Assembly: GCF_027484365.1 (NCBI RefSeq)
Contig: NZ_JAIXTC010000018.1
Location: 80,286 to 144,285, forward strand
DNA length: 64,000 bases
Direction: 5' to 3'
Source of the DNA: Brevundimonas sp.
GTDB taxonomy: Bacteria > Pseudomonadota > Alphaproteobacteria > Caulobacterales > Caulobacteraceae
Shown: positions 9,611 through 20,659 of the stretch, piece by piece
Layout: each line of letters begins with the position of its first letter
Numbering within the stretch: the first letter of the stretch is position 1
Position numbers and translations under genes: made by a program
Notes under the pieces: generated by a model
Told to the model about the DNA's origin: nothing
Seen by the model: the letters and a program-made list of their open reading frames with translations, nothing else
Database searches by the model: none

Positions 9611-9670
9611 GATTTCGTCCGTTTCGTCCGTTTCGTCAGGGTGTTTTCGTCCGGACCGACGGACAAAACC
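9611..9670. repeat. Dispersed ~60-bp element, copy A: triple 9-mer (GTTTCGTCC-type) plus GGGTG-T-run plus internal inverted repeat
   Basis: Differs from 40180-40240 by 1 indel and 2 substitutions. Confidence 0.92.
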
Positions 9671-16253: not shown

Positions 16254-16888
16254 ATCGGGTGCTGGAGGCCGCTGAGCGCCGGAGTCGATGAGAACATCCA
16301 GCCCCGGAAGATCTGACGCGGCGAGGCGCCCGCCGCCTTCGGCTGCAGCGTCACATCGATATAGGCGATGGCGTCCTCGACCAGTTCGTTCTCGGCCGAG
16401 ACCTCGCAGGCACGTGCGGTGAAGATCAGCGCCTGGTTGAACCGCACCGGACGTCCGCCGACCTCGACCTCGAACCGCATGCTTTCCGCAGTGATCTTGT
16501 CGATCGCCTCGATGATGGCGACGCGACGACGCTGGCGCGGGACCGGCGTGTCAGCGGCGAGGCGTTTGGCCTTGTCCTCTTCGGATTCGCCGTCCTCATC
16601 GTCCTTGGCTTCATCGTCAGCCTCGGCGTCCGGGACCTCACCCTCCTCCAGCGCAGCGGTCTCGATGGCCGGTGTCGGAGGCGTGATAGCGATGGGCGTG
16701 GCCGGAGCCGGGTCGCCGGCCGGAGCAGCCTCCTGCATCGGCTCGGTCCTCAGGGCGTCGCCGATCGGGCCGGATGCCGGGGTCGCGTCCTGGGCCGGCG
16801 CGTTCTGCCAGCCTCCGGCGACGACGCCGCCCGAAAGGGCCAGCCCGACGACCGCCGTACTCACCAGCAGGATGCGGGCGCGGCTCAT
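16220..16888 (-). CDS. DUF2155 family exported protein
   Basis: Signal peptide, acidic linker, AIDKITA..ACEV..FRGWMFSSTPALSGLQHPIYDAWVVGCK. Confidence 0.85.
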   Translation of the reverse strand: MSRARILLVSTAVVGLALSGGVVAGGWQNAPAQDATPASGPIGDALRTEPMQEAAPAGDPAPATPIAITPPTPAIETAALEEGEVPDAEADDEAKDDEDGESEEDKAKRLAADTPVPRQRRRVAIIEAIDKITAESMRFEVEVGGRPVRFNQALIFTARACEVSAENELVEDAIAYIDVTLQPKAAGASPRQIFRGWMFSSTPALSGLQHPIYDAWVVGCKA

Positions 16889-17277
16889 TCGGGCTTCCAG
16901 GCCTCATAGTCGCCTGTCGCCGCTGGTCGCACGCCTTCGGACAGCAACGAGCCCTGCGGATGCCAGGCCAGCGGCGTGCCGGTCATGTTCGGACGGTGAT
17001 CCAGTTCCCAGCGACGGCGGGGCAGCGGCGCCTCGGTCGGCGGCTCATCGAAGGTGTAATGCAGCCAACCGTGCCAGTCCGGCGTCACCTTGGAGGCCTC
17101 GGCATAGCCCTCATAGACGACCCACCGGCGTTTGCGGCCGTCGTAGCTGATGTTGTCCCGCGACTGGTAGTAGCGGTTGCCGTGCTCGTCGGTCCCGATC
17201 AGGTCGGCGCGTTTGGCGATTGTGAAGAGGGTGCCGATCGTCGCGCCGGACGTCCAACCGAATATTCTGCCGAGCAC
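16885..17277 (-). CDS. NADH:ubiquinone oxidoreductase accessory subunit NDUFA12 (17.2 kDa) homologue
   Basis: [44 protein letters not shown]. Confidence 0.92.
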
Positions 17278-17380
17278 GAGGCGTTTCCAGTCCAGATTCG
17301 GATCGGCGGGAGGCCCGATCCAGTCGTCCGATCATAGAAACCGGCCGCGTCCACGTCCAGCGTCCAGCCCAAATCGACTT

Positions 17381-17428
17381 CAGCAACATCTTGGGGGTAA
17401 CCCCTGGATGGACCGCTACATCTATTGC
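17381..17428. promoter_or_regulatory. Tandem NrdR-box-like sites
   Basis: Cores CAACATCTTG (17384-17393, 8/10 to CWATATATWG) and CTACATCTAT (17416-17425, 7/10), 32 bp apart, directly upstream of the nrdJ-like gene. Confidence 0.6.
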
Positions 17429-17482
17429 GGCGATGGCCCGGAGCGCCCTAGGCTGTCGAAACGATCCTGTCCGGGCCTGCGT

Positions 17483-20251
17483 ATGCGCTTCACCCCCTTC
17501 CTGACCGACCTCTCCGCCTCCGTCGTGTGCGAAGCGCGCGAGATCGAGCGGGCGGACCGTGTGATCCGTGTGATGGCGCCGGCCGGCTGGAGCGATGCGC
17601 GCGTGGAGGCGTGGCTGGACTGGCACGACCAGTCCCCTGAGGACTGGCCTCGTCTCGAAGGCGCACCGTCGCGCACGGCGTCTGCTGGGCCGCCCGTGCT
17701 GGACGGGGCCCTCGATCGGTGGGCCGCCCGTCTCGCGGCCTGGGGACGCTCGACCGGGGTGTTTCCGTCCACATCGGACGCAGAGACCTTCGCCTCGGAA
17801 CTGGTCGCCAGCGTTCTTCTGGGTCTCGCCGCGCCGTCGTCAGTCTTGCTGGAAGGCGCCCGGACGCCGCCCGCTGCCGAAGACCAGCCCGGCCCCTCGC
17901 GCAACGCAACCGTCTTCGACCTCGGCGACGCGGGTGTCCGCGCCCGATTCGAAAGCGATACCGCGCGGCGCCGCACGGCGCGTGTGACCGCCCATGCCCT
18001 GTCGGGCGTCACCCGAACCCTGCGCGCAGTGACAGACGCCGTCAGGCGCTGTGAAGGCCCGGCCTCGGTGTGCGCCGACCCTGCCGCCAACCCGGCTCTG
18101 GGCCGCGCCGCCCTGGCCGCGCGTCGGGCCGGCGCGGATGACACCGCGATCCTGGACGCCATCGCCGGACGGGTCTTCTCCGCGCCGGAACCGGAGCCGC
18201 TGAAGCAGATTCGGGTGGTTGCCGTTGCCGATCCCGCCTCGCCGATGGACGCCCCTCTTCGGGCCGCCGCCGACGGATGCCTGGCCGACGACCTCATCGT
18301 CGCCTTTTCCGTGCGTGATGCCGAAGCCGCTGCGGATCTCGCCATCGCGCCCGGCTGCGCCATCGCCCTTCCGGCCGTGGCCGCCGCCCTGCCCGACATG
18401 GTCGAGGCCCTCGACCGCCTCGCCCGACTGTGGACGACGGCGCTGGAGATCGAGGTGGCCTGCGGCTTCGCCCCGGACGGACGGCTCGCGCGCCGGCGTC
18501 ACGCCGTGCGTCCGGTGGTTCTCACCCTGACAAACGGTCTCGACTGGCTGATCGCCGAAGCCGATGGCGCGATCAGCGAGACCGAATTCACAGCCGCATC
18601 CGGCCTCTTTGCTGCGGCGGCCTCTCTTGCGTCGAGCGAACTGGCCGAAACGCTGCGTCCTGCAGCCGACTGGCCCGTCGCAGCCGAAACCGTCCTGGCC
18701 GCGTTGGAGCGGCGCGAGGCTCGGCTCTCCGACCTGACCAGCGAGCTTGGGCAAGCGGCCGCACTGCGAACGGCACAGGCCCATGCCGCGGCGAGCACTT
18801 CGGGTCGACGGCAATGCCTGATCGCCACACTGGGGGCCGACGCCGAGCGGGACCTGCGACTCGGCGTTGCTCCGCTTTCCGGAATCGAGGTCTTCCAGAC
18901 CCGCGACGGCGATATGGTCCGCCGTCTGCACCCGAACCTCGCTGCCGCGATCACCGCCCAGGGCGGCGATGTGGAGGGCGCCGAACGCTGGCTTCTGGGC
19001 CGACGCACGTTGATCGACTCACCCGCGCTCGGTCATGCCGAACTCGCAGCGAAGGGCTTCACCGAGGTGGAGCTGGAGGCGGTCGAGGCGGCTCTGGCTC
19101 ATGTCGAAAGACTGGACGAGGCCTTCGCCCCGCCCGCCCTGGAGGCCGGATTCATCCGCGATGTCCTCGGCTTCGATCAGGAGACCGTGGGCCACGGCGG
19201 TTTGCTGGCGCTATTGGCCACCCCGGAAGAGATCGCCGCCGCGACGGACCATGTGTTCGGCCGCCGCGACCTGTCCGACTGGCCCAGCGCACCGGTCCGT
19301 CTGAAGGCCATTCTCACCGACCTGGACCTTGCCTCCGCAAACCTGGTCCGTGCCGCCGAGATGTTCAGCGACGTCGCGGACATGACCTCGGTCGAGCTGC
19401 CCAGCCGGGCGGGGATCGGCGCCGCGATGGCCCTGCTGGCCCAGGCCGCGTCTGAGGGTCGTCGGGCAATCCGGCTGTCTCGCCGTCAGGCCTCCAACCA
19501 GCCCCTGCTTCATCTACCGGACTTCGAACCCGCCCGTCGCGCGCCGGAGCCCCCGCCCCAGCCCAGGCCGGCACCGACAGAACGGGTTGTCGAACGGGTC
19601 ATCGAACGGGTCCGCACCCGCCGCAAACTGCCCGACCGCCGCAAGGGCTATATCCAGAAGGCCGCTGTCGGCGGCCACAAGGTCTATATCCACACGGGCG
19701 AGTACGAGGACGGCGAACTCGGCGAGATCTTCATCGACATGCACAAGGAAGGCGCCGCCTTCCGCAGCCTGATGAACAATTTCGCCATCGCGATCTCTAT
19801 CGGCCTGCAATACGGAGTGCCGCTGGACGAGTTCGTGGACGCCTTCCTGCTGACGCGTTTCGAGCCGGCGGGGCGGGTCACGGGCAACGACTCCATCGGA
19901 TCCGCGACCTCGATCCTAGACTACATCTTCCGCGAACTCGGCGTGTCCTACCTGGACCGCCACGAACTGGCCAACGCCGACGCGGAGCCGCTGGACGCCG
20001 ACGGTCTCGGTTCGGGCAAGGCCGACGAACTGGTCCCCGCCGCCCGCTTCATCTCCAAGGGATTTGCCCGGGGCGCAACGCCGGACAATCTCGTGGTCCT
20101 GCCGTTCGGTCGGAAGGCCGAAACGCCGGGCCGAAGCGGTGATCACGGCGAGGCTGACGCCTGCCCCGCCTGCGGTGACTTCACGCTTCAGCAACGCGGC
20201 GGGGCCTGGATCTGCGACACCTGCGGGATCGCGCCCCAGATGCGGGGATAA
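17483..20251 (+). CDS. Degenerate class II (B12-dependent) ribonucleotide reductase homologue with intact TSCPD domain and zinc ribbon
   Basis: C-terminus [58 protein letters not shown] and CPACG..CDTCG are NrdJ-typical. The N-terminal part matches NrdJ only loosely and has no NPCxE motif. Confidence 0.85.
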
Positions 20252-20257
20252 GGCCTG

Positions 20258-20659
20258 GTGACCGCCTTCAGCTGCCCCCTTCGCGTTCGTTGGGGCGAGG
20301 TCGACGCCCAGGGCGTGGTCTTCAACCCCAATTATTTCGTCTACGCCGATGTGGCCGCGACCGAGTTTTTCCGCGCCGCCGGTGTGATGAACGGCGACCA
20401 TCCCGACATGGGCCAGAGCTATGTCGTCGATGCGCGCGCCAGCTTTCGCGCATCGGCCCGCTTCGACGACCTCCTGGACATCCGGGTCTCCGTTTCGCGG
20501 ATCGGCCGCTCCAGCTACGACCTGCGCGTCGACATCCTGCGCGACGGCCAGCTCCTGACCGAGGTGTCGCTGACCTACGTCCGGGCTCTCGAAGGACGGT
20601 CCGAACCCCTGTCCGAGGGCTATCGCGCCATGCTCGCCCGCGTCGTCACACCCGACTGA
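20258..20659 (+). CDS. Hotdog-fold acyl-CoA thioesterase (YbgC/FadM-like)
   Basis: RVRWGEVDAQGVVFNPNY motif, GRSS turn. Confidence 0.9.
   Translation: MTAFSCPLRVRWGEVDAQGVVFNPNYFVYADVAATEFFRAAGVMNGDHPDMGQSYVVDARASFRASARFDDLLDIRVSVSRIGRSSYDLRVDILRDGQLLTEVSLTYVRALEGRSEPLSEGYRAMLARVVTPD

Follow-up and report, generated by a model that had tools for sequence, protein, structure and literature searches.

Why would a bacterium keep, in an unbroken frame, a gene for a ribonucleotide reductase (RNR) from which the parts that reduce ribonucleotides appear to have been cut away? The gene that raises this question lies in a 64,000-nucleotide stretch of a Brevundimonas sp. genome (RefSeq assembly GCF_027484365.1, contig NZ_JAIXTC010000018.1, positions 80,286 to 144,285 of the forward strand; this whole stretch is the window below, and positions are counted from its first nucleotide). 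An earlier note, made from the letters alone, had read the gene as a catalytically dead class II RNR (NrdJ) kept under NrdR control, with a tail that might act as a redox donor, and had named as checks an alignment to alphaproteobacterial NrdJ, the ratio of nonsynonymous to synonymous substitution rates (dN/dS) per domain, and a structure prediction. Here relic denotes the catalytically stripped NrdJ homologue, and real NrdJ a protein that scores above the NCBIfam cut-off for the enzyme. Taken whole, the explanation that we favour, and consider quite probable, is that the relic is a dead NrdJ that selection retains under an NrdR control predicted from its upstream sequence, and that its C-terminal module is the working part, acting through binding.

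The long class II RNR of Alphaproteobacteria gave rise to this gene, which has stayed at the ancestral locus. Its open reading frame (ORF) runs for 922 codons without interruption, as the earlier note had stated, and the product is about 300 residues shorter than long NrdJ. TSCPD (PF12637) is the sole Pfam match (residues 728-819, 40.3 bits, gathering cut-off 22.8), making the protein a member of that domain family; the long NrdJ model (NCBIfam NF005736/PRK07562) finds it with 327 bits, in 6 separate stretches, which is well short of the enzyme-family cut-off of 1737. A sequence search of the PDB returned a single match, Rhodobacter sphaeroides NrdJ (7b9p, E 3e-6). In a profile-profile comparison (HHalign), a profile of 70 homologues aligned to a profile of eight real NrdJ with a probability of 100% and E 4e-109, residues 1-918 being collinear with 1-1225; because the two profiles align over their whole length, the protein is a true NrdJ descendant and no chimera. 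The divergent NDUFA12-like gene next to it also adjoins real nrdJ in five other alphaproteobacterial families (loci L017, L018, L023, L024 and L025), and this common neighbour makes the relic a positional orthologue of nrdJ. The structural match to 7b9p (E 8e-23, described below) concurs.

What has been lost was determined by aligning (MAFFT) the relic and its relatives with real NrdJ from eight other alphaproteobacterial families, and every loss that follows holds for the relic and each relative in its family. About 170 residues are deleted, among them the first active-site cysteine of the enzyme (PHACFIQS), the stretch GSGTGSNFSxLRG and the specificity site with its helices and loops; no relic retains the block (GSGTG...LRG, with loops 1 and 2) that makes up the specificity site and dimer interface. 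The radical finger-loop segment ASNPCSEYMFLDD falls in a gap by both MAFFT and HHalign, and no NPC or NxCxE motif occurs among the 79 related proteins that we extracted. TACNLASLNL is replaced by a stretch that is not conserved, nor is the cysteine within it conserved among relatives, so that of the redox pair of the RNR active site the first-strand (ACF) cysteine is deleted and the CNL cysteine is no longer maintained. APTGTIGL and CANPCGR are lost as well, and the protein ends without GCS. The only invariant cysteines of the N-terminal part (N-part) are C190 and C197, in the motif RCEG-x5-CADP, which sits outside the barrel, in a helical insertion characteristic of long NrdJ. The earlier note had listed the missing NPCxE motif, the deleted segment with the first cysteine and GSGTG, the degenerate TACNLAS-like site and the absent terminal GCS, and all of these survive the alignment, which finds no conserved radical cysteine in the barrel. 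Because the strand of the first cysteine, the specificity block, the finger loop, the second cysteine and the redox pair of the tail (see below) are all gone, ribonucleotide reduction by the RNR mechanism would, judged by the sequence, be impossible for the relic protein.

The gene is nonetheless under purifying selection. We compared the window gene with five close orthologues (79-93% protein identity, synonymous divergence dS of 0.2-0.8), and obtained dN/dS values of 0.08-0.21 in the N-part (residues 1-690) and of 0-0.07 in the module (residues 713-830), against 0.03-0.09 for the neighbouring NDUFA12-like and thioesterase genes in the same pairs. That is, a homologue without catalytic residues is held in place in both its N-part and its module, as expected of a pseudoenzyme, and neutral decay is contradicted. 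Since everything needed for making deoxynucleoside triphosphates (dNTPs) has been lost and yet selection keeps the gene, it must now have some other job. The frame is intact in most Caulobacteraceae and in two sister families, and together with purifying selection and a predicted folded N-part this demonstrates that the relic is a functional protein and not a decaying pseudogene.

Its distribution was examined in 81 genomes, one per alphaproteobacterial family, in 61 genomes (27 genera) of its own family, and in a separate sample at the level of the order. Real NrdJ above the cut-off was present in 47 of the 81 alphaproteobacterial genomes; within the family it was present in none of the 61, and 54 of them had a match of relic strength (E <= 1e-50). 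Among named genomes, relic loci occur in Brevundimonas, Caulobacter (including a C. vibrioides metagenome-assembled genome, MAG), Asticcacaulis and Phenylobacterium. Across the order, relics are found in families f81 and f82 (12 of 12 genomes in each) and in one genus of f84, and the real enzyme persists in two other families; a relic was never seen alongside a long real NrdJ in any genome of the order sample. The class I subunit NrdB is present in 60 of the 61 genomes of the order sample, and class I RNR in every relic-bearing genome sampled. Since class I is nearly universal there, the likely history is an ancestor with both class I and class II enzymes that then lost class II catalysis. A single relic clade is not rejected by the tree built from the module (p = 0.09 in the approximately unbiased test, p-AU), whose support is low, so that one origin and several are both compatible with it. 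A bona fide short class II RNR (752 aa, with NCFV, GGGVG, NPCGE and a six-cysteine tail) was seen, in a relative of the same genus without the relic, at L129:563-2821, minus strand (G001:C1), and ORFs for such an enzyme occur in about 12 of the 61 family genomes; the genome of the window has none.

That genome (3.4 Mb, 100% complete) encodes one class I alpha subunit (PRK09102, 1015 bits, cut-off 620) and one NrdB. It contains no class III RNR and no other TSCPD or RNR-barrel gene, which leaves the class I enzyme as its sole real RNR.

Selection has kept the regulatory sites along with the gene. NrdR sites are described as two 16-bp boxes with conserved C4, A6, A8, T9, T11 and G13 and a linker of 15-16 bp (PMC13584703). 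Upstream of the relic, at 55-102 nt before the ATG, are two such boxes with starts 32 bp apart (a 16-bp linker) and 11 of the 12 key positions, the cores that the earlier note had picked out. The same two boxes stand at the same spacing before the relic in other genera, and in all at 53 of the 57 related named loci that have a full upstream flank; the 220 kb of remaining locus sequence, taken as background, contains no tandem boxes. The genome has one nrdR gene (TIGR00244, 167.6 bits, cut-off 124.65). A genome-wide scan for pairs with at least 11 of 12 positions at this spacing returned 5 loci, where about 2.3 are expected by our estimate from base composition. The promoter of the class I alpha subunit gene (nrdA/E) is among the five; another, at C14:185467, is intragenic and probably due to chance, and another precedes an 816-aa ORF of unknown function. 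NrdR control of the relic is thus strongly indicated by the promoter region, and since the ancestral tandem boxes have been kept, the relic should still be repressed at high deoxyadenosine triphosphate (dATP) and expressed together with class I RNR. With the motif losses, the dN/dS values, the conservation across the order and the boxes at 53 of 57 loci, the central proposal of the earlier note, a catalytically dead NrdJ kept under putative NrdR control, holds up well.

Two further NrdR-type sites were seen outside the window. Upstream of nrdB is one strong box, CAACATCTTGTG, and no high-scoring second one. A perfect pair (6 of 6 and 6 of 6 key positions, 32 bp apart) at L028:1042-1089 (G000:C28:144041-144088) begins 17 nt ahead of an open frame of 636 aa that encodes a SIR2_2 domain and is divergent from a HEPN/nucleotidyltransferase ORF; possibly this SIR2_2 frame is a defence-like gene controlled through dNTP sensing.

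The two parts of the protein have fared very differently. Between families the module is 82% identical among real enzymes, 86% among relics and 81% between real enzymes and relics, and the corresponding values for the N-part are 64%, 23% and 24%; the loss of catalysis has thus brought no acceleration in the evolution of the module, and the body has changed strongly between families while being constrained within each lineage. The match of the C-terminal part to the TSCPD domain and CxxC..CxxC ribbon of NrdJ, claimed in the earlier note, is borne out by this identity of about 81% and by the Pfam match. In a member of a sister family (G169; locus L124, G169:C11), the gene beside the NDUFA12-like gene consists of linker, TSCPD module and zinc ribbon only (about 270 aa), and the locus has no room for an N-part; that is, the whole RNR body has been deleted. 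The C-terminal module would then be the common functional core, being all that this relative keeps. G169 is the only clean module-only case: two short "stand-alone" genes, P0153 and P0163, were rejected as probable frameshift artefacts, because the long-read assemblies that they come from break the N-part into several frames and, in L127, also interrupt the adjacent aspS. In another relative (L128, on a 1.6-Mb contig), the N-part is broken into several short frames and a C-terminal frame of 377 aa is intact, which may mean either that the body is genuinely decaying or that the long reads contain indel errors.

The cysteines of the tail suggest how the module may work. In the NrdJd of S. nassauensis, C920, C923, C936 and C939 have been proposed as zinc ligands and C933 and C945 as an electron shuttle (Loderer et al., PMC5704485). 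All active NrdJ that we aligned have six tail cysteines at the same spacing. Relics of four lineages keep exactly the four zinc ligands and have lost both shuttle positions (four cysteines against six); in the relics of Asticcacaulis the ribbon is missing altogether, with no tail cysteine left, and the TSCPD module itself is without cysteine. The working part would thus be the whole C-terminal module (linker, IscU-like/TSCPD domain, FISKGF motif and zinc ribbon), probably so in view of its unaccelerated evolution and its survival as the sole remnant in one relative, and with the electron-shuttle cysteines lost it would most likely work by binding. In active NrdJd the same region drives oligomerisation and contacts the reductant; the module of the relic might correspondingly be a non-catalytic scaffold or regulator linked to dNTP supply, with the N-part as a lineage-specific carrier.

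For the N-part, AlphaFold2 (AF2, run with the 70-sequence alignment) gave a predicted local distance difference test score (pLDDT) mostly above 90 over residues 1-680, and Foldseek placed the body closest to R. sphaeroides NrdJ 7b9p (template modelling score, TM, 0.47-0.50), followed by Thermotoga maritima NrdJ and class I R1. With a high pLDDT and NrdJ as the best PDB match, the predicted N-part is a compact, folded, remodelled RNR-like scaffold, which answers the structural check named at the outset. Within it R19, E22, R23, P33, E42, A43, W44, D46 and W47 are invariant among the 70 homologues. The full-length model shows the C-terminal module at low confidence. Our label of IscU-like for the tail domain rests on the alpha+beta fold described by Burnim et al. 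(PMC9669993), since our own model of the module is poor and its Foldseek comparison with the PDB gave no significant match; the role of this domain in the tails of class II RNR is given there as an open question.

How does the reading of a selected dead enzyme that works through its C-terminal module compare with other accounts of the same data? The N-part may instead have evolved an independent new activity, whether it binds a ligand or carries out other chemistry, with the module only assisting; a dN/dS only slightly above that of the neighbouring genes, a very confident predicted fold and invariant clusters (R19, E22, R23, W44, D46, W47 and the C190/C197 pair) would all be accommodated, but the N-part is 14-38% identical between families, largely unalignable in f81 and fully deleted in G169, the module staying at 79-91%, and the cysteine pair is not universal outside its own family, so we judge this account unlikely. 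Still less can be said for a tail that serves class I RNR in trans as a redox or zinc donor by analogy with NrdJb. The equivalent module is indeed a separate chain in split NrdJa/NrdJb (PMC9669993), inter-subunit electron transfer has been reported for NrdJd (PMC5704485), and a class I RNR is at hand in every sampled relic-bearing genome; however, relics of all four lineages have lost both proposed shuttle cysteines while keeping the four zinc ligands, the TSCPD module offers no cysteine in their place and Asticcacaulis has dispensed with the ribbon. The role as a donor is thus very improbable, and the suggestion of the earlier note that the tail is a redox donor is disfavoured.

Slow neutral decay, with a frame that is intact by chance, might be suspected from the clean loss of the gene in some genomes and from an N-part so variable between families, but dN/dS far below 1 in every segment, frames intact in 54 of 61 family genomes and in sister families, conserved promoter boxes and translation of the Caulobacter orthologue in ribosome profiling make it hardly credible. 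We give almost no weight to a still-active RNR with a variant radical site: full-length NrdJ homology and NrdR boxes are what such an enzyme would have, but the barrel has no conserved cysteine, C190 and C197 lie in the helical insertion specific to long NrdJ, and the segments for substrate, effector and finger loop are physically missing. Against the explanation that we favour, a retained, NrdR-controlled and catalytically dead NrdJ acting through its module, several points must be set. The N-part is well constrained in this lineage (dN/dS about 0.1, pLDDT above 90) and may have a function of its own, beyond that of a carrier; NrdR binding to the boxes is deduced from their letters; a model of the module alone (weak, pLDDT 64) shows three strands and then helices, with IscU (1q48) only at rank 2 and E 0.28; and two complete genomes of the same genus cleanly lack the relic, as do several other genomes of the family (in G001 the NDUFA12-like gene is directly followed by the pentapeptide gene), making it dispensable in some lineages.

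Among known systems, the relic shares with the long dimeric class II RNR (NrdJd type, R. sphaeroides NrdJ 7b9p) its whole-length collinearity, best structural match, NDUFA12-like neighbour, tandem NrdR boxes, a TSCPD module about 81% identical and the spacing of the zinc ligands; unlike the relic, that enzyme has the first cysteine, the specificity block, the NPCxE loop, the CNL cysteine, APTGT and the tail redox pair. NrdJb of the split class II RNR (Pseudomonas aeruginosa type) likewise has an IscU-like domain and a zinc finger (PMC9669993). It illustrates that the module can be a polypeptide of its own, as in G169. Crona et al. are said to have found in 2015 that NrdJb works in the service of an active NrdJa, mediating dithiol exchange. 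The relic differs here, having no active NrdJa-type partner in its genome and having lost the redox cysteines. RNR-derived proteins that have lost catalytic or cofactor residues and are kept for a non-catalytic role include the R1 homologues of betaherpesviruses (M45/UL45) and yeast Rnr4. The likeness has its limits: those proteins are class I-derived, eukaryotic or viral, and have unrelated new functions, whereas the relic is a bacterial class II derivative that keeps an RNR-type transcriptional control.

The features of the locus are collected in Table 1. The genes follow in the order NDUFA12-like (divergent), relic, thioesterase, two pentapeptide-repeat genes and aspS. Between relic and thioesterase gene we saw no terminator-like site, and the two are probably co-transcribed, as far as their arrangement can tell. 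The thioesterase gene is found at the relic locus in the closest relatives only, which marks it as a recent insertion into the operon. The candidate promoter of the relic, given in the table, was not called by a scan for the sigma-70 consensus; the CCTAGnCT motif within it recurs downstream of box 2 in other genera. On the other strand, at 17331-17359, a promoter-like TGGACG-17-TATGAT faces the NDUFA12-like gene, with a GACTATAGG...GTCCAGC motif conserved in other genera. A copy of a dispersed GACGAAACG-repeat element lies at 9611-9670 of the window, and another outside it, between nrdB and its upstream region (G000:C7, about 171140-171180).

Table 1. Features of the relic locus, in window coordinates
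Feature	Position	Strand	Basis and remarks
Divergent NDUFA12-like gene	16885..17277	-	Pfam match; marks positional orthology
NrdR box 1, CAGCAACATCTTGGGG	17381..17396	.	6/6 key positions; CAACATnTTGKGG in other genera
NrdR box 2, CCGCTACATCTATTGC	17413..17428	.	5/6 key positions, T at position 13; ACATCTATTGC conserved across Caulobacteraceae
Possible promoter: TTGCGG overlapping box 2, then conserved CCTAGGCT (17447-17454)	17425..17454	+	Suggested by position and conservation
nrdJ-relic coding sequence	17483..20251	+	922 aa + stop (ATG at 17483, stop 20249-20251); ORF and profile comparisons
Residues 1-120, remnant of NrdJ N-terminal domain	17483..17842	+	Invariant residues; weak Pfam match PF08471; pLDDT ~90
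Residues 121-690, remodelled RNR body; active site, specificity site and finger loop missing	17843..19552	+	Alignments, AF2, Foldseek
Conserved RCEG-x5-CADP motif	C190 18050-18052; C197 18071-18073	+	70-homologue alignment
Residues 691-712, Pro/Arg-rich linker with repeat	19553..19618	+	Alignments
Residues 713-830, TSCPD (IscU-like) module	19619..19972	+	Nearly invariant; Pfam, identity, dN/dS
Residues 851-876, FISKGFxRG..PDN motif	20033..20110	+	Nearly invariant; common to active NrdJ of the same order
Residues 894-914, zinc ribbon CxxC-x13-CxxC	20162..20224	+	Four ligand Cys kept, both redox Cys absent
YbgC/FadM-type 4HBT thioesterase gene	20258..20659	+	Starts 7 nt after relic stop (6-bp gap)

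These results bear on a gene that has been given another meaning in Caulobacter. CCNA_01966 of C. crescentus is listed as a B12-dependent NrdJ (PMC6538847; bioRxiv 2024.08.20.608768; PMC5869019), and its value in ribosome profiling is about 1020, compared with about 3730 for NrdB (PMC6538847 supplement). We infer that it is the orthologue of the relic, because the match in the C. vibrioides control genome stays below the threshold and a C. vibrioides MAG carries a relic locus (L087). The open literature (subscription journals lay outside our coverage) yielded no description of this protein as non-catalytic, and metabolic models and papers on Caulobacter count the gene as a B12-dependent route to dNTPs (PMC6538847; bioRxiv 2024.08.20.608768). 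The true B12 enzyme of Caulobacter, if there is one, may be the short class II gene instead of the so-called NrdJ.

More generally, and tentatively, the IscU-like/zinc-ribbon module of long NrdJ may have a function that does not depend on catalysis, as a dNTP-linked regulator or as an assembly or partner-binding factor acting in trans, and the relics of Caulobacterales could then be natural separation-of-function versions of it. If true, the C. crescentus "NrdJ" (CCNA_01966) would not be a B12-dependent reductase. A domain that has stayed about 81% identical while the enzyme around it was dismantled offers a clean genetic way to study what the IscU-like domain does, and the relic would be a rare bacterial RNR-derived pseudoenzyme that is still in the NrdR regulon. 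If the enzyme is indeed dead, Brevundimonas and many of its relatives rely on class I RNR alone, and the use of B12 in this family needs to be read anew.

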